Assembly (NCBI GenBank): GCA_047639455.1
Contig: JBLINS010000001.1
Coordinates: forward strand, 179-64,178
DNA length: 64,000 nucleotides
Origin: Candidatus Omnitrophota bacterium
GTDB lineage: Bacteria > Omnitrophota > Gorgyraeia > 2-02-FULL-51-18 > JAGOUK01
Direction: 5' to 3'
Position 1 is the stretch's first letter, and the number at the start of each line of letters is the position of its first letter. Below, piece after piece: positions 612-63,560 of this stretch. The notes below the pieces were generated by a model. It was given only the letters and a program-made list of their open reading frames with translations, made no database searches and was not told the origin of the DNA. The translations under genes were made by a program, and so were the position numbers.

Positions 612-1037
612 TGGTGGAAGCGGTGGGAATCGAACCCACGTGTCTACGAACCTCACCTATAGTCTCTACATGCATAGTCGCTCATTTAATCTCACATCAA
701 AGATCTCCGAGCGACAGGATATCGATGATGCCAGCCCTCTTGAATTTCACTCAATAAAGAAAAGGCACCTTTATAGAGCTAACCCGCTAAGTTACGCCAG
801 ATTTCCTGCCGCAGGTGGTCAGAAAGTGACGATGGCTAGTTTATATAGCCATTGGACTCATTACAGGAAGGCGAAAAGCTGGAACCTGAAATGAGTTAAC
901 GCTTGTTGTTTTGGCGTTTATGTTTGTGTAAGGTGTTTTTTTACCCGAGGGTAAATCCGCGAACGGAGAGAGGCCTCCTTACAACCTCTGCATGGCCACT
1001 ATAAGAACGATAGCACAGATCGATACCAGTCGCCCCC
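612..1037 (-). ncRNA. ssrA: tmRNA (transfer-messenger RNA)
   Basis: Minus-strand transcript reads 5'-GGGGGCGACUGGUAUCG...GUGGGUUCGAUUCCCACCGCUUCCACCA-3'. tRNA-like T-arm (GGUUCGAUUCC) and an acceptor stem with a G3:U70 pair (Ala identity). The 3' end is UCCACCA. About 426 nt. A hairpin with UAA in its loop (AUGGCUAUAUAAACUAGCCAU) resembles the stop-containing helix 5. The tag reading frame is not resolved with certainty. Confidence 0.8.
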
Positions 1038-3745: not shown

Positions 3746-3841
3746 CTTGGGTTAGATTGCGAACAGCAACGAAGCAATCCAAAAGTAATAGTAACCTTTA
3801 GATTGCCGCGTTGCTGCTACGCGCGCCTCGCAATGACGGGC

Positions 3842-8572: not shown

Positions 8573-8810
8573 GTGAACAAGCGCGTCACCCTGAGCCACG
8601 CCTGCCTGCCGGCAGGCAGGCGAAGCAAGTGGCGTGAGGATCTCACAAAAATAGTTTGTAATAGTCAGCTATCATTAAGTTTAAAAGCATTCTGGTGGAT
8701 CCTTACAGCTCTTGCTCCGCAGAGCTTCACGATGACGCTATCATCTTTCAGCTACACAGAATTTCACACGCATGCATTCCTGCTGAGACGCCGAGCACTT
8801 CACTAATGAT
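8573..8810. repeat. dispersed intergenic palindromic repeat (MITE/REP-like family A plus a GCCTGCCTGCCGGCAGGCAGGC palindrome)
   Basis: Contains ...GGCGTGAGGATCTCACA... and aaaagcATTCTGGtGGATCCTTAC...CACGATGAC modules. These recur at 11155-11290, 25700-25845, 39640-39705 (inverted), 58040-58145 and 54135-54200. Confidence 0.7.
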
Positions 8811-11154: not shown

Positions 11155-11290
11155 CAGCGCTCCTCATCGTGAGTGGAGCTGAAAAAAATGCTCCGACGTA
11201 ACGATCTAACACTAAAAGCATTTCTGGGAGATCCTCACGTCGCTGCTACGCGCTCCCCAGGATGACACATGCTGCTGACGCGTCATTTAA
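11155..11290. repeat. MITE/REP-like dispersed repeat, family A copy
   Basis: atgctccgacgtaaCgatctaacactaaaagcatttctgggagatcctcacg...ccaggatgac. About 85% identical to the copy at 25734-25807. Confidence 0.75.
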
Positions 11291-25699: not shown

Positions 25700-25845
25700 A
25701 TATCGTCATCATGAGTTGGAGCTAATAAATTATATGCTCCGACGTAATGATCTCACAGCCAAAAGCTCTTCTGGGAGACCCTCACGTCGCTACGCTCCTC
25801 AGGATGACATGAGTGCGCCTGAGAGATTCCCAGGATGACGTCAGT
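25700..25845. repeat. MITE/REP-like dispersed repeat, family A copy
   Basis: Near-duplicate of 11155-11290, with two CAGGATGAC ends. Confidence 0.75.
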
Positions 25846-35949: not shown

Positions 35950-37560
35950 GTGAGCTTCAAAATAAGCAAGCATTCCATTGCACCATCAAACAGTTCGTCC
36001 TGGACTGTTTTAGACACAGTGCTTTCAGGATTACTTTTCGCACTAGCACTTTATTTGTATTTTGTTCAATTGAATAGCCCTATGGTTTGGGAGTCTGATG
36101 AAACCAAGGCCTATTTAAACTTCTTTCCTCCTACACCTGGCCTATATATGTTTTCTAGAGACGCTATTATTCTCTTCAAGTCGTTCACGGCACCATATTA
36201 TGTGAATGCTTTTTTTGGTTTATTTAGCTCAATGCTTATTTTTGGCATCGTACGCATGTTGTATTCACATAGGTTCGCTATGCTAGTTGCATTGGCTTAT
36301 ATTACTTTAGACCTACCCTTGGCATATGCCCGCATCCTTTTCTATTCGACTCTGGTTACCTTTTTTGCATTATTGGCTATTTGGTTATTTTTAAAAGCCG
36401 AGAAACTGAATAAGCCATGGCTGTATATTCTGGCAGGATTTTGTCAGGGCATGATGCTGATGATGCATCCATCAGCTTATGCAAGTGTTTTAGGTGTTGG
36501 GTTGGGGCTAATGTTTTTAAAATTCAGTCATAACCCCTATGAGTCAACCAATGCTTGGTGGCTGTACCCTATATTAGCTTTTTTAGGTTTTGTTGCAGCG
36601 ATACTTTTGGTTGACCATTGTTTTTTTATGCCCATAGACTCAATGAATCGGTCGTATTTTGTACATATGGGCTATCATCAACAAAATTCTTCTACAGAAC
36701 TTTATGCGGGGGCCATGGGTTGGAATGCTATCAAACATGCTTATAGCGCCTTAATTAATTCAGAATTAAGATCCCCTGAACGACTCATTCGGCATGCCAT
36801 TGTGTATATTGGCATTTTGTCTTCCATATCGTTCGCATGGCGTTCTAAGGATAAAAAGGCACTAGGCTTGATGCTTATATCAATCGCCACACTCGTGATT
36901 ATATTCACGGCGGGATTATTTAATAAGCACACGGTTTTTTTGCGACACTATACAGTCATTGCAATGAGTATTAGCTTTTGTATTGCCTATTCTTTGGCGG
37001 GCTTATTTTCTTCGCGAAGAAATGGTTTGAAAATAGCCGCAGTAATTCTGGCTTTGGTGTATTTTACAATGAGCGGCATAAGTTCTTATAAAATTGCACA
37101 TTCACTACTAAGTTTGGACGATATAGACTCTTATTTGCATGAGCAAAATATTGAAAAAAAAGATATAGTGACTGCTTTTTATACCATCAACCGCCTCCAC
37201 AATTACTTAGAGGGTAGTATATCGACACATACGCCGACAATTAAAAAAGGGCATAATAGCCCACCTGATTGGGAGAAGATTTTTTATTCATATTTGACTG
37301 GGCAACACCATTATTATATTTCATCTGGAATTGGCGGGGAACATATTCGACCCGCTTTAAAGGACGTGATCATAAAATACACCGAACCGCTTCAAACATG
37401 GCGCCATCCTCACGATAACCCTTATTTAACTCGGCAGTCTAAGGATGGGCTAACTATGAGCCTATATCGCATAGAAGATCTGTTGGCAACGTATAAACGT
37501 TTAAAAGTGGCGCTCGATATTCAACAATCCCGATCTATTGCAGGTAAAAATGTTAAATAG
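35950..37560 (+). CDS. GT-C fold membrane glycosyltransferase-like protein (PMT/ArnT-like), paralog 1
   Basis: 536 aa, about 11-13 TM. A DE motif in the first extracytoplasmic loop (WESDETKAY). A C-terminal soluble domain with W(R/K)HPHD(N/T)PY that is shared with the next gene. Confidence 0.55.
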   Translation: MSFKISKHSIAPSNSSSWTVLDTVLSGLLFALALYLYFVQLNSPMVWESDETKAYLNFFPPTPGLYMFSRDAIILFKSFTAPYYVNAFFGLFSSMLIFGIVRMLYSHRFAMLVALAYITLDLPLAYARILFYSTLVTFFALLAIWLFLKAEKLNKPWLYILAGFCQGMMLMMHPSAYASVLGVGLGLMFLKFSHNPYESTNAWWLYPILAFLGFVAAILLVDHCFFMPIDSMNRSYFVHMGYHQQNSSTELYAGAMGWNAIKHAYSALINSELRSPERLIRHAIVYIGILSSISFAWRSKDKKALGLMLISIATLVIIFTAGLFNKHTVFLRHYTVIAMSISFCIAYSLAGLFSSRRNGLKIAAVILALVYFTMSGISSYKIAHSLLSLDDIDSYLHEQNIEKKDIVTAFYTINRLHNYLEGSISTHTPTIKKGHNSPPDWEKIFYSYLTGQHHYYISSGIGGEHIRPALKDVIIKYTEPLQTWRHPHDNPYLTRQSKDGLTMSLYRIEDLLATYKRLKVALDIQQSRSIAGKNVK

Positions 37561-39115
37561 GCAAAATTCCCAAATCTTTGCATTGCGTGTTTGTATATGC
37601 ATCGGATTGATGTGCATGCTCTACTTTAATTTTTACAAATTATCCGGCGTAGTGATAACGCATTCAGATGAGAATAGAGCTTTTCACTTTCAATTATTTG
37701 CACCCCTAATTTATTTTGTCAACAAGCCCTTGATTACATATTTTAATAGTTTTGATGCAGCTTATTATCTTCAGGGTTTTGTGGGCTGCATGAATATTAT
37801 TTTGATTTATGGCGTTGGGCGCAGATACTTTTCGAAGGCCATAGGGCTAATAACTGCATCTTTTTATCTTTTTTATGATTATCAATTAGCTTTTGTCAAA
37901 ATGCTATATTACTCAAATTATATGGTTTTTCTTTGTTTAATCAGCATCTTACTATGCAGAATTGCATTGAATCGAAGATCTTATGTAATAAGCTTCTTAG
38001 CCGGCACACCATTAGCGCTGATGTTTTTTTCTCATCCAGCGGCTTTTGCGCCCATTAGTATGTTGTTTATTTTTATGATTTTGGCTATATACGTCGAGAG
38101 GGATGAGATAGGTTTTAGAGGGATTTGGTTATTGAGCTTATTTGGCTTAGGTGCTTTGAGCGCCTTGGTTAGTCTCGAAGCCTTGAATCTATATTACCAA
38201 ACGTATATTTTAAAAGTGGACGCAATGCCGTATCTTTTAGATATATTTCAATTCAAAACTATCACTCAAGGATTCGAGTCAAAGAACTCAACCCAACAAA
38301 TTATACAATTTGCTAATACCTATGGACGCGCGCTATTTTGGACCTCAGCGTTGGTGACTTTTAGAAATACAATGATTCTATTTTGCTTTGTATTTGCGCT
38401 TGTATCTGCCATATGCAGACGCCAAAGAAATATGTTACTTTTCCTAAGTCTTGCGTTGTCGGGCATTACTGTTTGGATTATGGCTATGTATTTATTAGAC
38501 ATGCCTATATTTAGGAGATCCTTGGTCTGGATGTCTATACCAATATCTTTCTCATTCGCATATACAGTGCAGCGCTTGTGGTGTCTGGGGATAAAAGCGC
38601 TTAAATTGGCCATGCTGATTATTCTAGCGATTTATTTCATGTCAGCCGCATGGCAATGTCATTTGATCACACAAGAATTATGGACCATGCAACCTATAGA
38701 GAAATATTTGGATCAGCGCGGAATTAGTAAAAAGGATATAGTTTCAGATTTTCCGCTATTCAGAAGACAGGATATTACTAATAAAAATATTCCACGTGGA
38801 GTTCCTAAAAAGACTACTACGGTTCAATTGAATGGGGCGGATGAATTAAAATATCATTTGGATTGGCAAAAAATATACGCCATGTATAAATATGGCATGA
38901 TTAGTCATTATTTATCTACTAGCCTTGGGGCTTTGCTTGATTTTTACCATGATGATCCATTATTGAATCGTGTTGAACCTATGATGGAGTGGAAGCATCC
39001 ACATGATACTCCATATATCAATATGCTGGGGCGTCCAGGACAAAAGATAAAGCTATATGACTTAGATGAAGTATTCGCTCCCGTGAATGCTCTAGCAGAT
39101 AAAAAAGCTCAATAA
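37538..39115 (+). CDS. GT-C fold membrane glycosyltransferase-like protein, paralog 2
   Basis: 525 aa. DEN in the first loop. The C-terminal domain is clearly homologous to paralog 1 (HYLS.S.G...W.HPHD.PY). Overlaps paralog 1 by 23 nt. Confidence 0.55.
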   Translation: MQVKMLNRQNSQIFALRVCICIGLMCMLYFNFYKLSGVVITHSDENRAFHFQLFAPLIYFVNKPLITYFNSFDAAYYLQGFVGCMNIILIYGVGRRYFSKAIGLITASFYLFYDYQLAFVKMLYYSNYMVFLCLISILLCRIALNRRSYVISFLAGTPLALMFFSHPAAFAPISMLFIFMILAIYVERDEIGFRGIWLLSLFGLGALSALVSLEALNLYYQTYILKVDAMPYLLDIFQFKTITQGFESKNSTQQIIQFANTYGRALFWTSALVTFRNTMILFCFVFALVSAICRRQRNMLLFLSLALSGITVWIMAMYLLDMPIFRRSLVWMSIPISFSFAYTVQRLWCLGIKALKLAMLIILAIYFMSAAWQCHLITQELWTMQPIEKYLDQRGISKKDIVSDFPLFRRQDITNKNIPRGVPKKTTTVQLNGADELKYHLDWQKIYAMYKYGMISHYLSTSLGALLDFYHDDPLLNRVEPMMEWKHPHDTPYINMLGRPGQKIKLYDLDEVFAPVNALADKKAQ

Positions 39116-39460
39116 GAGTCTGTGCCCGCATAATCGATATGCCCTCCACAATCTGATTGTTGAAACTAATTTTGTGAACGCAGCTCCTACAGAAATGGCG
39201 TGAACATCAATCTATTAAACAACACGCCATCTCAGTGCGAGCTGTCTTAATCACAAAATACGTCAACAATCAAAATTGTTCCGGATATACCGATTATGCG
39301 GACACTAATTATCAATGTACTAAAACTCCTCAAAAAATATAATTAATGGAAAATAAAATTAAGACAAAAGGATGCGCCTATAGGCAGCGGGTATCCTCAC
39401 CGCCGCAAAGTCTAAAAGCGGTTAACCCATTAAGAGTTTAGGCTGTTTAAAACCTGGCGG
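39116..39460. repeat. composite structured repeat element, copy 1 (candidate ncRNA / non-autonomous element)
   Basis: A long imperfect hairpin of about 180 nt (39124-39300; arms caatctgattgttga / tcaacaatcaaaattg; inner stems cagctc/gagctg and ggcgtg/cacgcc). Then a gcgcctataggcagcgggtatcc module and an aaaaccTGGCggtttt hairpin. A second copy lies at 61965-62400. Confidence 0.6.
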
Positions 39461-39625
39461 TTTTAAAGACGCAGCTTAGACAAGGAATCCTGAAAACCTG
39501 GCGGTTTTAAAGACGCAGCTTAGACAAGGAATCCTGAAAACCTGGCGGTTTTAAAGACGCAGGCTATAACAAGGAATCCTGAAAACCGGGCGGTTTTAAA
39601 GGCACGGGTTTGAAACAGATTACGA
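39457..39625. repeat. 44-bp tandem direct repeat x about 3.5
   Basis: Unit gaaaacctggcggttttaaagacgcagcttagacaaggaatcct. Each unit contains the small hairpin AAAACC-tggc-GGTTTT. Confidence 0.85.
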
Positions 39626-39639
39626 AAACCCTTGTTCGC

Positions 39640-39705
39640 CACAGTCATCCTGAGCCACCACGTAGTAGGTGGCGTGAGGATCCCACAGAATGTCTTTAGA
39701 CTATG
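39640..39705. repeat. MITE/REP-like dispersed repeat, family A copy (inverted orientation)
   Basis: gtcatcctgagccaccacgtagtaggtggcgtgaggatcccacagaatg is the reverse complement of the cattctg..gatcctcacg...caggatgac consensus. Confidence 0.7.
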
Positions 39706-39836
39706 TTTTTGACAACTTTTTGCATGTTTGAAAGCGGTTAACCCATTAAGAGTTTAGGCTGTTTAAAACCTCGCGGTGTTAATGACGCAGGCTTTATAAA
39801 ATGGAATTCTAAAAACTTGTAGTTGAAGCTGTGAAT

Positions 39837-41392: not shown

Positions 41393-41436
41393 ACGTCATT
41401 GCGAGTTACGCGTAGCAGTAACGCGGCAATCTAGGG
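41393..41436. repeat. dispersed repeat family B (CGTCATTGCGAG...GCGTAGCAG.AACGCGGCAATC)
   Basis: Reverse-complement match to 3801-3842. The related short motif CT(C/T)CGCAA(T/C)GA(C/T)G recurs at 12181, 22751, 47984, 41513, 54180 and 8726. Confidence 0.7.
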
Positions 41437-48922: not shown

Positions 48923-49222
48923 TTTACACCTCTTTTCTATTGGTAGCCTGGCTGACCTTCCTTCATTGTAAGGGGAGGTTCCATGGTTTTGCGTCCCATG
49001 TTTTCACATGGTTTGCCAGCATATAAATGCTTTTGCTACCCCTGTTAGGGGTTTTTTCTTTAAAAGAGCTTTGAGAGCACCCATATTGTGCCCTAATAAG
49101 AGTATAGGCGACAAAATAGGAGAATTCAAGGCAACTAATCTAAATATAACCTAAATTAAATCTAAATATTGACTATTATTAAGCAATTCTAAGCAGTGGC
49201 AACTACAGGTGTTGTTTCGGCT

Positions 49223-52188: not shown

Positions 52189-52262
52189 TGCCTGATGGTG
52201 TAATGGTAACACACGGCCCTTTGGAGGCTGTATTCTAGGTTCGAGCCCTAGTCGGGCAACCA
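52189..52262 (+). tRNA. tRNA-Gln (anticodon TTG), CCA encoded
   Basis: Acceptor TGCCTGA/TCGGGCA (U1:A72). D arm GTG-taatggtaa-CAC. Anticodon arm CGGCC-cuUUGga-GGCTG. T arm CTAGG-TTCGAGC-CCTAG. Discriminator A followed by CCA. Confidence 0.8.
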
Positions 52263-52277
52263 CTTACAAACGGCCAG

Positions 52278-52640
52278 TCAAATTTGACTGGCCGTTTGTA
52301 ATTTGGATTGTGCCCAACAGGACGTAAAAAGTCCTGTCTCGGCCGGTTCCCTTCTAGGGGCCTCACTGACTCGGCCCGCTCGTAGCATGGGCTCTTTATT
52401 CATCGCCCACTCGCTACCAGCATTTGGTGTCCTGATTGGGAAATCAGGCACCAGCACAACCAAATTAAAATAATGGGCTGTGCCCCAAATAAGGGGGTAG
52501 GTTCTGAAATGGTAATATGTGTTTATTAGCACAAGACCGAGCCAGACTTGTGAGTCAAATTTGACTGGCTGTTTGTAATTTGGATTGTGCCCAACAGGAC
52601 GTAAAACGTCCTGTCTCGGCCGGTTCTCTTTTGGTTCACC
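52278..52640. repeat. two approximately 90-bp direct repeats (52278-52365, 52553-52640) flanking a 187-bp palindrome-rich spacer
   Basis: Unit tcaaatttgactggcYgtttgtaatttggattgtgcccaacaggacgtaaaaMgtcctgtctcggccggttc. Each unit has a perfect CGGCCAGTCAAATTTGACTGGCCG palindrome. Confidence 0.8.
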
Positions 52641-54654: not shown

Positions 54655-54785
54655 TTGTCATCCCCGCGGAGGCGGGGATCTAACAATTATTGCGTAGTGC
54701 AGGTTCTGGATCCCCGCCTTCGAGGGGATGACATTGTTCGCGGGGATGACATTGTTCGCGGGGATGACAAGAGTTTGATTTTGGG
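54655..54785. repeat. GGGGATGAC/GTCATCCCC palindromic and 18-bp tandem repeat array
   Basis: atccccgc-gga-gcggggat hairpin plus cgaggggatgacattgtt / cgcggggatgacattgtt / cgcggggatgac. This accounts for the spurious N-terminus of ORF 54655. Confidence 0.8.
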
Positions 54786-55296: not shown

Positions 55297-55374
55297 TTTT
55301 TAAGCATTAAAATAGTTCTTTAATAAATTAAATATATTTTGGCACCTAGCTTATTTGTATTCGTTGATAAGTGA

Positions 55375-55550
55375 GGTTTAATGAGGGAATTGGGTGAGAA
55401 TCCCAGACGGTCCCGCCACGGTAAGGTTATTACAACCAAGTCCGAATACCACCAAAATATGAAGTGATCATGATTCACGCAAGATGAGCATGATTGTAGT
55501 CGAGACCAAGATTAACGGGTATGCTCTCCAGAGCATACCCGTTTTTTTGT
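55375..55550 (+). promoter_or_regulatory. cobalamin (B12) riboswitch with terminator expression platform
   Basis: GGGAAuuGGGUGagAAUCCC ... CCCGCCACgGUAA ... AAGUCCGAAUACC core. Followed by the hairpin AACGGGTATGCTCTCCAGAGCATACCCGTT plus T7, upstream of a TonB-dependent receptor. Confidence 0.75.
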
Positions 55551-57950: not shown

Positions 57951-58039
57951 TTGAGAAGGTCTGATTTTAGGTGTCCAAAATATATGGATGACTCATTTTC
58001 AAGATTGTCATTGTGAGACACTCTAATAAATTATAATGG

Positions 58040-58145
58040 GTGTCGTAACAATCTCACAGCAAAAGTCTTTTAATTGGTTATTTGCATTGAGTCTGAAAGC
58101 ATTCTGGGAGATCCTTACGCCAAAAGCGGCTCAGGATGACAGTCT
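58040..58145. repeat. MITE/REP-like dispersed repeat, family A copy
   Basis: gtcgtaacaatctcacagcaaaagtc...aaagcattctgggagatccttacg...ctcaggatgac. Confidence 0.7.
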
Positions 58146-58202
58146 CAAAATTAGTTTCAAATATTTTTTAGACACACAAAAGTGACAGTTGCGTAGCTTT
58201 AC

Positions 58203-61200
58203 TTAGTACGCGAGGTTGGGTCGGAGCCATTTTTCGGCTTGGGGGATGGTCATGCCTTTGCGTTTGGCATAATCTTCGACTTGGTCTTTTTGGATTCGGC
58301 CTAGGCTAAAATAAACGCTTTCGGGATGGGCAAAGTATAGACCGCTAACTGATGCACCTGGAAACATGGCGGTGCTTTCGGTTAATTTGATCTGAACCTG
58401 TTCTTCTATGTGGCATAGGTCCCACATATGATTTTTTTCGGTGTGATCGGGGCAAGCTGGATATCCGGGTGCTGGACGTATGCCGCGATATTTGCAAGAA
58501 ATGAGTTCTTCATTACTCAAACTTTCATTCGGACTAAAACCCCAGAATTCATTGCGCACGCGCTCATGCATATGTTCAGCTAAGGCTTCGGCCAAACGAT
58601 CTGCAATTGCTTTGACCATAATGCTGCGATAGTCATCATGCTCGGCATCGTATTGAGCCGCTAAAGCTTCCGCTCCCATGCCAGCAGTCACAGCAAAGAC
58701 ACCAATGTAATCTTTGACACCAGAATCTTTAGGTGCAATAAAATCAGCTTGGGCTAAATAAGGTTTGGCATTAGTTTTGAGCGCTTGCTGTCTAAGTGAA
58801 TGTAAGGTGCTAATCACTTCTTGTCTAGTGTCGTCAGCATAAATTTCTATGTCATCACCAATGCTATTGGCTGGGTATAAACCAATAATAGCATTGGCTT
58901 GAAGCTGTTTTTTGGCAATGATTTCTTTGAGCATGGTCTTAGCATCATTGAATAATTTGGTCGCCTCTACACCGAGTTTAGGATCGGTGAGGATATTGGG
59001 GTATTTAGCTTTCATTTCCCAAGTGAGGAAGAAAGGTGACCAGTCAATTCGCTGGGTTAAGGCTTCCAAGTCATAATCAATGAATGTTTTGGTGCCTAAA
59101 AAAGACGGCTTGGTGATGGATACTTTGGACCAATCAGATTGCATGCCTTTTTGTCGCGCATTTTGAATAGATTCATAAGGAATTTTGCCTGAGCGACTAG
59201 CATGTAAGTCTCTTAATTCTTGGTATTGCAAATGAATGTCTTTGATTAGGTCTGCTTTTTTGACCGGATCCATGAGTTGGCTACACACGCCCACACTTCG
59301 TGAAGCATCTTTAACATGAATGGTGATGTCACGCGTGTATGTTGGTTGAATTTTGACAGCTGTGTGATTTCGGGATGTGGTAGCCCCTCCGATTAAGAGG
59401 GGGACATTAAAGCCTTGGCGCTCCATTTCCGAAGCCACCGTAACCATTTCATCTAAAGACGGCGTGATGAGGCCACTTAAGCCAATAATATCAGCATTAT
59501 GTTCTTTGGCGGCTTTGAGTATTTTGTCATATGACACCATGACACCCAAATCAATGATCTTAAAATTATTACAAGCCAAGACCACGCCCACAATATTTTT
59601 GCCTATATCATGCACATCACCCTTAACCGTGGCCATGATGATGACGCCCGCACCCTTGTTATCACCTTTAGCTTTGCCGGCTTCAATGAAGGGGTTGAGA
59701 TAGGCCACAGCCTTTTTCATGACTCTGGCACTCTTAACGACTTGAGGTAAGAACATCTTGCCATCACCGAATAAGTCTCCAACCACATTCATGCCATCCA
59801 TTAAGGGGCCTTCAATCACATCGATTGGGCGCGTAGCACTTTGACGCGCTTCTTCTGTATCGGCTTCAATATATTCAGTGATGCCTTTGACTAGGGCATG
59901 CTCTAAGCGTTTATTGGCACTTTGTTCACGCCAGCTTAAGTCATCCACTATTTTTTTGCCTTCGGACTTATAACTTTCGGCAAAGTCGATTAATGCTTCG
60001 GTGGCATTGGGATTGCGATTGAGAATCACATCTTCGACTTTGACTAATAAATCGGGTGGTATTTGGTCATAGACTTCAATCATGCCAGCATTAACTATGC
60101 CCATATCCAAACCAGCTTTAATAGCATAGTAGAGGAAAACAGAATGCATAGCCTCGCGTAGAGGGTTATTGCCTCTAAAAGAAAAGGATACATTGCTCAC
60201 ACCACCGCTAATACGCGCATAGGGGAGATTAGCTTTGACGAATTTGCAGGCTTCAATAAAGTCGACAGCATAATTATTGTGTTCCTCTATACCTGTGGCT
60301 ACGGCAAAGATATTGAGGTCAAAAATAATGTCTTGAGGCGGGAAGTGAACTTCTTTAGTCAAAATATCATAGGCGCGTTGGCAAATGGCTTGGCGTTTTT
60401 TTAAGTTATCCGCTTGACCGTTTTCGTCAAAGGCCATGACTACAGCCGCGGCACCATAGCGGCGCAGAAGTATGGCGTGTTTTTTAAAAATTTCTTCACC
60501 TTCTTTGAGGCTAATTGAATTGACAACCGACTTGCCTTGGCAACATTGGAGTCCCGCCTCAATCACATCCCATTTGGACGAATCAATCATTATAGGCACG
60601 CGTGCAATATCAGGCTCAGACGCGATTAAGTTTAAGAATTGAACCATAATGGCCTTGGAGTCCAACATAGCCTCGTCCATATTAATATCAATGACTTGGG
60701 CGCCTGCATCGACTTGTTGTCGGGCAACAGTTAAGGCCTCATCTAATAGACCCTCTTTAATTAGACGCGCAAACTTGAGTGAACCGGTGATATTGGTGCG
60801 TTCGCCTATATTCACGAATATAGAATCTTCTTTAATACGCAAAGGCTCCAAGCCACTTAAGGTTGTGTGAATAGGCTTATCAGTTACTTGTCTGGGCGGC
60901 AGGCCTTTGGCAGCTTGAACCATGGCCGCAATATGGCCAGGCGTTGTGCCGCAGCATCCGCCTAAGATATTAATAAAGCCACTATCGGCAAAGTCTTTGA
61001 CGAGTGCCGCCATTTGATCGGGCGTTTGATCATATTCTGCGAATTCATTGGGCAACCCTGCATTGGGATAACAACTAATATGACAATCCGCCAATTTGGA
61101 TAATTCAGAAATATAAGGGCGCATTTCCTCAGCGCCTAAAGCGCAATTCAAACCTATAGACAAAGGCTTGGCATGTTGTAGAGATAACCAAAAGGCTTCT

Positions 61201-61880
61201 GTAGTTTGACCTGAAAGAGTGCGACCACTTGCGTCAGTGATTGTTCCAGAAATCATAACCGGTAGATAATTCTGAGTGTCCGCAGCATATTGGTCAATAG
61301 CAAAAAGGGCGGCCTTTGCATTCAAAGTATCAAATATGGTTTCGACTAAGAGTAAGTCAGAACCACCATCTACAAGACCTTTGATTTGTTCCGTGTATAC
61401 CTCTACTAATTGTTGAAAGGTGACGGCTCGATTGCCTGGGTCATTCACATCTTGCGACATGGAGGCCGTTCGATTAGTGGGCCCTATAGCTCCAGCAACA
61501 AAGCGCGGTGACTTGGGATCTCTAGCTTGCATGGCATCACAAGCGGCGCGGGCGATTTTGGCAGATTCAAAATTAAGTTCATAGACGATTGTTTGCATAG
61601 CATAATCAGCCATACTTATGGCATTAGCGCTAAAGGTATTGGTTTCGACTATATCTGACCCTGATTCCAGATATTCCATGTGAATACTTTGGATAATGTC
61701 GGGTTGGGTTAGGGACAATAAGTCATTATTGCCTTTAAGGTCTTGAGTGTAGTCCTTAAAGCGCTCACCACGATATTCAGCTTCACCGAGTTTGTGGCGC
61801 TGAATCATAGTGCCCATAGCGCCATCTAAGAATACAATTCGTTCTTTGAGTAGTTTATATATAGGATGATTAGAATTCAT
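58203..61880 (-). CDS. metH: cobalamin-dependent methionine synthase
   Basis: 1225 aa with Hcy-binding, pterin-binding, B12-binding (DxHxxG ... GG) and AdoMet activation domains in MetH order. Confidence 0.9.
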
Positions 61881-61964
61881 ATCAAGAAATTATAACAGAT
61901 GTTCTCAATTAGGATGAAATAATGCATAAGAAGTAAGAGGATGATATCTGGTAGGTTGACTAGC

Positions 61965-62400
61965 AAAAGCCTGTACTCACATAATCACTATACCCTCCAT
62001 AATATGATTGTTTAGACTTAATTTCATTGCTACGCATGGATCCAGTTACACGGCTTTATGACGGGCTCCTACCGATATGGTGTGAACATAATTCTGAACA
62101 ACAACACACCATATCTGTGGAGCTGCCTTATTCACAAAATACGTCAACAATCAAAATTATTCCGGATATAGTGATTATGTGAGTACAAAAAAATTAGACA
62201 ATATACAAAAGGTAGAAGATATTAGTTTTTATAAAAAGATAAGGTGGCGCCTATACGCAGCGGGCATCCTGCACCGCTACGGAGTCTATGAAAGAAGAGA
62301 TCCTATAAAGCCTCCGGCTAATGAGTGTAGTCTTTATAATAATGAAACACCTGGATGACTTTTGGGACTCTCTTAAACCTGGCGGTTTAAGATTCGTCAG
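61965..62400. repeat. composite structured repeat element, copy 2
   Basis: Homologous to 39116-39460. Hairpin arms cacataatcactata / tatagtgattatgtg, with compensatory changes relative to copy 1. Inner GGTGTG/CACACC versus GGCGTG/CACGCC. Ends with ttAAACC-tggc-GGTTTaa. Confidence 0.6.
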
Positions 62401-62540
62401 TTTAGAAGCGTAGGTTTTTTTTGATGTTAGTTTGGGGGTGCAATGTATTAGGGGGATTTTGGGACGTTTTTTTTGAATTGGTGTAGAGACAGTGAGAAGG
62501 TATAGGCATGTGCAACAAAATAGGCTAAAATAAGTGACTT

Positions 62541-63560
62541 ATGAAATTAGCAACTAGCGAAGATAGCTTTCAAAAGCTTTGTTTATTTATTCTCACAGTA
62601 GTCGCGTCGGCCTTTGCGTTGTATTGGCTGAGGCCTGTGATGATACCCTTTGTATTAGCCATATTTTTTAGCTCTATGCTAACGCCATTACTAGATGCTC
62701 AAAAAAAATACTTACGCTTTCCCAAAGCATTAGCCTTAGTTACTACATTAACCTTGGGTGTATTGATTCTAATCCTCATTTGGCTTGTGATCACGTCGTC
62801 CATTAGTCAAATCGCCCAGAACACAGCTCAATATCAGCAAAAGATAGAAGTATTTTTGAGCAATATTGTTTCTAATGTGCATTTGGAACAATTTGGCATT
62901 GATGTCAAGGCTCTGAGTGGACCAATATTGCGGAATATGGGTGAGAATGCCGGAGCCATGATTCGTACTGTGATTAATGCGATCTTAGGAATTTTTAGCC
63001 AAGGCTTTTTGGTTCTTATCTTTGTTATTTTTTTAGTATTAGGCAAAGCACGTTCACCTAGAATTGTGAATAAAGATTGGCTAGAAGGCGAACGTCGCAT
63101 TAAGCGTTATATTGCGACCAAGTTCATAACATCAGCTTCGACGGGTATTTTGGTGGCTGCGGTATTGAATTTCTTTCAAGTTGATATGGCGACACTATTT
63201 GGTTTATTTGCCTTCATATTGAATTTTATACCGAGTGTTGGATCTATTGTTGCAACGCTTTTGCCTCTGCCAGTTGTCTTAGCTAGCCCCCACTTATCGC
63301 CATTGACAGGTACATTGGCTATAGTTATTCCAGGTGTGATCCAATTCATTATCGGCAATATATTGGAGCCTCAAATTATTGGCGATTTATTGGACTTACA
63401 CCCAGTTACGATCTTGATGGCCTTGATATTTTGGGGTATGATTTGGGGTATTGTTGGGATGTTTTTAGCAGTTCCATTGACAGTTGTGATGCATATAGTT
63501 CTTTCAAGAATATCGCTTACGGTACCGATTGCTAATTTATTAGCTGGCCGCATCGAATAG
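62541..63560 (+). CDS. AI-2E family (PerM/UPF0118) transporter
   Basis: 339 aa, 8 TM, AI-2E family pattern. Confidence 0.7.
   Translation: MKLATSEDSFQKLCLFILTVVASAFALYWLRPVMIPFVLAIFFSSMLTPLLDAQKKYLRFPKALALVTTLTLGVLILILIWLVITSSISQIAQNTAQYQQKIEVFLSNIVSNVHLEQFGIDVKALSGPILRNMGENAGAMIRTVINAILGIFSQGFLVLIFVIFLVLGKARSPRIVNKDWLEGERRIKRYIATKFITSASTGILVAAVLNFFQVDMATLFGLFAFILNFIPSVGSIVATLLPLPVVLASPHLSPLTGTLAIVIPGVIQFIIGNILEPQIIGDLLDLHPVTILMALIFWGMIWGIVGMFLAVPLTVVMHIVLSRISLTVPIANLLAGRIE

Follow-up and report, generated by a model that had tools for sequence, protein, structure and literature searches.

What kind of element is the intergenic sequence that occurs twice in a 64,000-nt stretch of the genome of a Candidatus Omnitrophota bacterium, each time as a long hairpin followed by smaller stem-loops? 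This stretch, called the window here, has a GC content of 0.41. A preliminary description of it had pointed to homologous regions at 39116-39460 and 61965-62400 and proposed a two-copy composite element that could be either a novel small RNA (sRNA) or a structured miniature inverted-repeat transposable element, or MITE. Below, H designates the hairpin core, S1 and S2 the downstream stem-loop modules, and module 2 the segment S1-S2. H and its modules are probably a non-coding, MITE-like structured intergenic repeat family of this bacterium, so that the repeat half of the earlier proposal is retained and the sRNA half, for which neither a terminator, nor a strand signal, nor an Rfam match was found, is not. 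The occurrence of several copies, the breaking of contigs at them, their mosaic structure, the minisatellite beside one of them and the ability of both strands to fold favour a repeat element over a discrete sRNA gene. The term "MITE-like" is used in place of MITE because a target-site duplication, an empty site and a partner insertion sequence were not found.

Homology and pairing of the hairpin H

The homology first proposed for the two regions is borne out by BLAST, which aligns 39183-39414 with 62065-62288 at 73% identity over 238 nt (E 2e-31) and the 5′ arms, 39114-39172 and 61965-62024, at 78%. Both H copies, 184 and 216 nt long, are imperfect palindromes homologous to each other, and each forms one long hairpin of the irregular kind that had been described. 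The minimum free energy of the RNA is -75.7 kcal/mol on the plus strand (z -12.4) and -94.9 kcal/mol on the minus strand (z -11.2) for copy 1, and -79.1 (z -10.6) and -85.4 kcal/mol (z -8.1), respectively, for copy 2. Folded as single-stranded DNA (ssDNA), the copies reach -42.4 (z -9.6) and -42.8 kcal/mol (z -8.9). Compared arm against arm, copy 1 is 70.5% identical over 190 nt, and the window contains exactly two occurrences of a 26-mer of the 3′ arm, with 0.00 expected. The terminal inverted repeats are near-perfect over ~22 bp and form an outer helix of 22 pairs in copies 1 and 2; the termini of H read TGTRCYCRCATAATC ... GATTATGYGRGYACA, and in the window and the fetched loci examined these repeats are confined to the element ends. 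Copy 2 also contains an inverted repeat (I3) of 32 nt with 88% complementarity. Directly 5′ of the palindrome, at all four aligned left ends, lies a non-palindromic 12-13-mer resembling CTAGYAAAAGYC. Open frames within the element are short and broken by stop codons, and its six-frame translations gave no protein match among 5.8 billion proteins at E <= 10. An independent assembly from the Logan collection, made from a different sequencing run (L017), matches copy 1, the spacer behind it and S1 base for base, and a Logan contig of the same organism as the window (L002) reproduces the 3′ part of copy 2 together with its downstream modules; the structure of H is therefore not an assembly artefact.

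The 3′ arm had been singled out as almost identical between the copies and as the functional strand. Its better conservation is confirmed: aligned between copies 1 and 2, the 3′ arm has 38 matching and 3 mismatching positions, and the 5′ arm has 28 and 8, respectively, with 11 further columns gapped. The difference is real but not statistically compelling, because only two copies enter the comparison (Fisher p = 0.10 on substitutions, indels excluded), and a functional role of this strand in particular is not established by it.

The closing stems, the inner stems and the small AAACC-TGGC-GGTTT hairpins on which the claim of covariation had been based are present as described. Covariation was counted over a 65-pair structure on copies 1 and 2 and the partial third copies presented below, that is, over two to three sequences and with a count that is not phylogeny-aware. 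Double-sided compensatory changes are found at 12 of the 65 stem pairs, three more pairs change on one side via G-U, and standard pairs occupy 95.3% of the cells. When the 3′ partners were slid by 1-3 columns as a control, 0-2 double-sided changes and 29-41% of paired cells were obtained, and none of 500 column shuffles reached the observed values. The counts and controls therefore indicate that pairing in H is maintained non-randomly, in agreement with the earlier claim. In the outer 22-pair helix four pairs differ between copies 1 and 2, all of them G:C to A:T. The inner helix reads GGCGTG/CACGCC in copy 1, GGTGTG/CACACC in copy 2 and GGGGCATG/CATGCCCC in the third copy, the last including a covarying transversion at columns 125/167, from G:C to C:G. 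Unpaired features are likewise kept in all copies, for example a pyrimidine-rich 3x3 internal loop, CTC/TCC, beside CC/GG pairs.

Maintained pairing can be read in terms of selection or of mutation. Template-switching and the correction of mismatches within hairpins are known to copy changes from one arm to the other in bacterial quasi-palindromes, and H could be a neutral quasi-palindromic repeat whose arms co-vary by these processes and not by selection. Such a repeat would be consistent with double changes between copies 1 and 2 that are all G:C to A:T transitions, with the grouping of these changes into two haplotypes of the outer stem, found again at different loci and in different species in the way conversion-like processes produce, and with the lack of strand asymmetry in an element that folds as DNA on both strands. 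Repeated correction should, however, erase loops and arm differences, whereas asymmetric loops and bulges such as the CTC/TCC loop persist in all copies and the arms are only about 70% identical. The transversion covariation of the third copy also speaks against a purely mutational origin, and the neutral explanation is considered unlikely. As a contributing process, template-switching while the quasi-palindrome is replicated may be one source of the joint changes in the two arms.

Modules, further copies and genomic setting

In copies 1 and 2, H is followed by a spacer, S1, a variable segment and S2 in the same order and orientation (Table 1), and the mosaic unit H + S1 + S2 measures ~350-430 bp. 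S1 gives no covariation signal because its stem pairs are invariant among the three sequences available. S2 has the invariant core AAACC-TGGC-GGTTT; all six occurrences of its motif in the window fall at the two H loci (0.32 expected by chance), and its consensus fold carries double-sided changes at three pairs or more. The folding advantage of the complete module 2 over shuffled sequences is marginal (z about -2). Beside copy 1, S2 has been amplified into a 44-bp minisatellite, and a further, degenerate duplicate lies downstream of it, detected as repeat D4 (92% over 65 nt) and by BLAST (86.5% over 89 nt). A type III toxin-antitoxin repeat array was ruled out for the 44-bp array, since no open reading frame (ORF) follows it on the same strand, as was a clustered regularly interspaced short palindromic repeat (CRISPR) array, since its units are identical throughout and have no spacers. 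S1 and S2 were also considered as intrinsic terminators and rejected, none being predicted.

Table 1. Parts of the repeat element and associated features, with positions in the window.
Feature	Position	Strand	Description
Left extension, copy 1	39108..39120	+	Non-palindromic CTCAATAAGAGTC; overlaps stop codon (39113-39115) of the 525-aa PMT_2-like gene
Hairpin H, copy 1	39122..39305	.	184-nt imperfect palindrome, outer stem type I (GTGCCCGCATAATCG); covariance model 211.9 bits
Spacer, copy 1	39306..39369	+	AT-rich, poorly conserved (~55-65 nt in both copies)
S1, copy 1	39370..39406	+	GC-rich stem-loop (GCAGCGGG...CCGCCGC, inside GGATGCGCC...)
S2, copy 1	39440..39480	+	Small hairpin GGCTGTTTAAAACC-TGGC-GGTTTTAAA..CAGCTT; also first unit of the tandem array
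44-bp minisatellite	39449..39601	+	3.5 units, S2 hairpin in each; Tandem Repeats Finder 96% matches, score 274
Degenerate second copy	39726..39819	+	3′ part of module 2, S2 and one array unit; local segmental duplication, S2 stem decaying
Left extension, copy 2	61960..61971	+	CTAGCAAAAGCC
Hairpin H, copy 2	61972..62187	.	216-nt imperfect palindrome, outer stem type II (GTACTCACATAATCAC); covariance model 196.7 bits
Insertion, copy 2 5′ arm	62025..62064	+	~40 nt, side branch; helix 3 disrupted
Promoter-like site	62144..62172	+	TCAACA-17-TATAGT in conserved 3′ arm, outward to S1, S2 and the AI-2E gene; consensus scan, putative
S1, copy 2	62243..62280	+	83% identical to orthologous S1 of L003
S2, copy 2	62364..62406	+	GGGACTCTCTTAAACC-TGGC-GGTTTAAGA..CAGTTT

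The element is not restricted to the two copies originally described. A third copy of H lies ~3.6 kb downstream of the AI-2E transporter gene, just past the end of the window, and is found at L002 4064-4143 and at 3940-4076 of L003, a contig of a relative whose AI-2E protein is 92% identical (metagenome assembly GCA_041294365.1). The count is thus at least three copies in the ~67 kb covered. The L002 and L003 contigs both terminate within copy 3, the end of L002 being identical to copy 2 over its final 30 nt, and the Logan short-read contigs repeatedly end inside or beside the elements, as repeated sequence is expected to break short-read assembly. The relative carries H at the orthologous copy-3 site and has kept S1 and S2 upstream of its AI-2E gene, where the contig starts within a few bases of the position of the right end of H.

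The copies of H are mosaics. Two haplotypes of the outer stem occur. The first, GTGCCCGC, is carried by copies 1 and 3 of the window genome; the second, GTACTCAC, by copy 2 and by the orthologous copy 3 of L003. Copies 2 and 3 of the window genome have the 40-nt insertion in common, which neither copy 1 nor the L003 copy 3 contains. The distribution of haplotypes and insertion therefore indicates exchange between copies, by gene conversion or by transposition replacement.

Beyond these loci the search for the element returned little. A covariance model (R1) run over the window and nine related loci (130 kb) revealed no new copy, and neither BLAST nor the covariance model found H in ~40 kb from relatives with AI-2E proteins 70-78% identical, which show no synteny. 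A 20-mer of the conserved arm had a single chance match among genome contigs, in a Parcubacteria metagenome-assembled genome (MAG), and a 19-mer had three matches in metagenome contigs, all due to chance. Scans of viral contigs gave nothing or chance matches within a phage gene, and BLAST of the element against plasmid and phage collections gave no match.

Between the window genome and L003, 4-fold degenerate sites are 46-62%, coding DNA 71-86% and ordinary intergenic DNA 77-81% identical. In the same comparison the spacer is 59%, S1 83%, the segment between S1 and S2 88% and S2 about 88% identical; conservation of the modules thus equals or exceeds that of coding sequence. This is compatible with constraint, and possibly with a local role upstream of the AI-2E gene. 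Between S2 and the promoter region of that gene lies a G/T-rich stretch of ~75 nt (62404-62478) whose place is taken by ~20 nt in L003 (about 205-235), and the last 66 nt before the AI-2E start codon are 86% identical in the two genomes.

The genomic contexts given earlier for the two copies are correct: copy 1 is located between convergent genes and copy 2 between the divergent metH (58203-61880, minus strand) and AI-2E transporter (62541-63560) genes. H is located in intergenic DNA, directly abutting gene ends. Copy 1 starts 7 nt past a stop codon with no terminator between, and upstream of minus-strand genes lie copy 2, at a distance of 92 nt, and copy 3, at 29 nt. The flanking genes encode two lineage-specific PMT_2-like membrane proteins, a PpiD/SurA-like chaperone, MetH and the AI-2E transporter, and the further neighbours are four genes of unknown function and a response regulator. 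The two membrane proteins, encoded at 35950-39115, are adjacent paralogues of ~530 aa with sub-threshold PMT_2 matches; the second of them, the 525-aa protein beside copy 1, has no homologue except itself among 5.8 billion proteins at E <= 1e-30.

Intergenic repeats abound in this genome. Short REP-like palindromic units of another, unrelated family occur in the window at 3799-3838, 8590-8650, 11215-11270, 25761-25810, 39644-39685, 41394-41433 and 58005-58150, with ends such as GTCATCCTGAG ... CGTGAGGATC or GTCATTGCGAG ... GCGGCAATC; most units are at gene ends, and one cluster closely follows the stop codon of metH on its downstream side. At 54719-54769 there is a tandem repeat of 18 bp, TTCGCGGGGATGACATTG (2.8 copies, 96% matches). 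A perfect 32-nt inverted repeat at 557-588 and 593-624 is an inverted duplicate of the 3′ end of the tmRNA gene (612-1037, minus strand) and may be an integration scar at this gene or a terminator derived from the acceptor end. Similarly, a tRNA gene at 52189-52259 is followed by a 78-nt direct repeat (52276-52353 and 52553-52630, 96% identical) that may be the attachment-site duplication of an integrated element. Two riboswitches are encoded in the window, a cyclic di-GMP-I riboswitch at 48939-49027 on the minus strand (64 bits) and a cobalamin riboswitch at 55323-55470 on the plus strand (52.8 bits), the latter not directly upstream of metH.

RNA gene, recombination site or dispersed repeat

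For H, alone or with S1 and S2, to be a true family of non-coding RNA (ncRNA) genes, that is, multi-copy sRNAs or a cis-regulatory leader with its own promoter, with the RNA structure as the function under selection and without mobility, transcription signals would be looked for at each copy. The conserved 3′ arm does contain promoter-like hexamers directed at S1-S2, and copy 2 has 10 such hexamers where 3.4 are expected; at copy 1 the -10 position is a poorer TATACC and the one hexamer nearby is outside H. Terminator prediction was negative at both the copy 1 and copy 2 loci. The minus-strand RNA fold is more stable than the plus-strand fold by 6 to 19 kcal/mol, which counts in favour of RNA genes. 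In the stems, however, plus-strand wobble (G.T) and minus-strand wobble (A.C) number 1 and 3 in copy 1 and 2 and 2 in copy 2, and neither strand is marked as the one transcribed and folded because the two mispairs are about equally frequent. The strong covariation of both H and S2 agrees with RNA genes, as does the 83-88% identity of S1-S2 in the relative with the 92% identical AI-2E protein, where synonymous sites are at 46-62%. Against them stand the unrelated contexts, with one copy after the 3′ end of a gene and two upstream of opposite-strand genes, the mosaic copies, the helix-breaking 40-nt insertion, an S2 that is both amplified and decaying, and the only marginal folding advantage of module 2 over shuffles. 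A scan of both loci against Rfam found no family at the gathering score, and relaxing the filters and the threshold to E <= 10 added nothing but unspecific hairpin hits on models of plant miRNA precursors, far below gathering. The 6S-like RNA for which a check had been suggested was rejected, as no Rfam 6S model matched even at E <= 10. An origin as ncRNA genes is accordingly regarded as rather improbable.

A broader formulation, in which H, S1 and S2 are undescribed Omnitrophota-specific structured ncRNAs or ssDNA hairpin sites held at conserved loci by purifying selection and are not selfish DNA, is doubtful and given little weight. If it were true, the element could represent a long double-stranded RNA module controlling metH, the response regulator and the AI-2E operon, or a site for a hairpin-binding recombinase that mobilises blocks of genes.

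The second of these possibilities touches on the arrangement of copies 2 and 3, which are directly oriented and bracket a ~4-kb block in the window genome containing the AI-2E transporter gene, four small genes without a Pfam match and the response regulator gene. The same block is present in L003, where one end carries copy 3 and the contig begins, at the other end, just 3′ of the position of copy 2. Neither the flanking genes nor the block include a transposase, integrase or reverse transcriptase. That the H copies are ssDNA recombination or transposition sites (attC, IS200/IS605 or REP-RAYT-like) delimiting a mobile block is very improbable: the bracketing is seen in the window genome and, at one end, in the relative, attC sites conserve structure over sequence as H does and S1 resembles REP, but the RYYYAAC ... 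GTTRRRY cores of attC are missing from the ends, H at 184-216 nt exceeds the about 57-141 bp of known attC sites, the neighbours are housekeeping genes, no integrase domain, Y1 transposase or other mobility gene is encoded in or beside the block, the block is unremarkable in GC content (0.39 vs 0.41 for the window), and copy 1 has no partner copy. A retron msr/msd was rejected on similar grounds, no reverse-transcriptase ORF being present beside either copy.

The reading of H and its modules as a MITE-like repeat family draws on several features shared with MITEs, namely size, terminal repeats, lack of coding capacity, position at gene ends, occurrence in at least three copies within ~67 kb, mosaicism and structure-preserving evolution. 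H (184-216 bp) and the composite (350-430 bp) are both below the limit of about 500 bp, non-coding, and H is bounded by terminal inverted repeats. Several points weigh against this reading. The check for target-site duplications that had been proposed found none that was convincing at three left and two right ends, a weak negative because the boundaries of the element are uncertain; an IS5-like CTAG/TTAG duplication around the composite was inspected by eye and dropped, as the inner ends do not form inverted repeats. An empty site was not seen at the two sites in L003, of which the copy-3 site holds H and the copy-2 contig starts past the position of H, and the gene beside copy 1 has no detectable orthologue. 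No insertion sequence with matching terminal repeats was found in the window or the fetched loci. The conserved 12-mer on the left side only and the fixed order H-S1-S2 are atypical of a simple MITE, and the 83-88% identity of S1-S2 between species hints at a local function beyond selfish spread.

For a MITE-like repeat, the history of the element would be that of a non-autonomous transposon, spread by a transposase supplied in trans. Selection would then act on the folded single-stranded hairpin, most likely as RNA produced by co-transcription with neighbouring genes; read-through RNA is proposed because copy 1 starts so close behind a stop codon and no terminator separates the two. In such a transcript, a perfect duplex of at least 20 bp could function as a determinant of mRNA fate, either as a substrate of RNase III or as a barrier to exonucleases, in the manner of the Correia and ERIC repeats. 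The Omnitrophota are a largely uncultured phylum, and a full-text literature search with MITE and repeat terms yielded, among its top results, no description of small repeat elements from them. The element is useful as a marker of assembly fragmentation in MAGs, is a possible regulator of adjacent genes, and provides a small example of structure-constrained repeat evolution.

Relation to known repeat families

Bacterial MITEs are generally ~100-400 bp long and fold into long stem-loops (PMC3184786). Among them, the bcr1 repeat of the Bacillus cereus group (about 155 bp) comes close to H in its mode of evolution, being a non-coding dispersed repeat of variable integrity among copies whose structure is maintained through base-pair compensatory changes (PMC3184786). 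The two have no sequence similarity. Furthermore, bcr1 is transcribed, is cruciform-like with two stem-loops and is flanked by 5-bp direct repeats, whereas H forms one long hairpin for which direct repeats were not found.

Chunjie of Geobacter uraniireducens and Nezha of cyanobacteria are MITEs that resemble H in size, in AT-rich sequence and in the high stability of their predicted RNA folds. Chunjie in particular is 178-235 bp long with 21-bp terminal repeats and has predicted RNA folds of about -98 to -130 kcal/mol, compared with -76 to -95 kcal/mol for H (PMC3184786). In these families direct repeats of 9 bp are clear or an insertion sequence matches, and there are both filled and empty sites; no such feature was found for H.

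The Correia/NEMIS repeats of Neisseria and the ERIC/IRU repeats of enterobacteria share with H the terminal inverted repeats, a hairpin comprising the whole element, a location near gene ends and putative outward promoters (PMC2229807). Correia and ERIC elements are co-transcribed with their neighbours, where their hairpins affect the processing and stability of the mRNA, and they carry putative promoters (PMC2229807). Correia/NEMIS (105-155 bp) and ERIC/IRU (127 bp) duplicate TA at their targets and number tens to hundreds of copies, and Correia contains a site for integration host factor (IHF). Unlike these, H is 184-216 bp long, shows no TA duplication, has a 12-nt left extension and is attached to S1 and S2; an IHF consensus site in its conserved arm does not fit when inspected by eye.

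With respect to its composite architecture, the element resembles BIMEs, which are mosaics of REP units, and a Porphyromonas gingivalis MITE that contains a minisatellite: short hairpin modules follow one another in fixed order in intergenic DNA, and a tandem array lies within a MITE-like element or is attached to it (PMC2817692, PMC4596501). For H neither a RAYT gene nor a REP-type high copy number is in evidence, and the sequences of its modules are unrelated. Taken together, the comparisons place the element among structured repeats of familiar behaviour; it opens no new mechanism, comparable behaviour having been documented for bcr1, ERIC and Correia.

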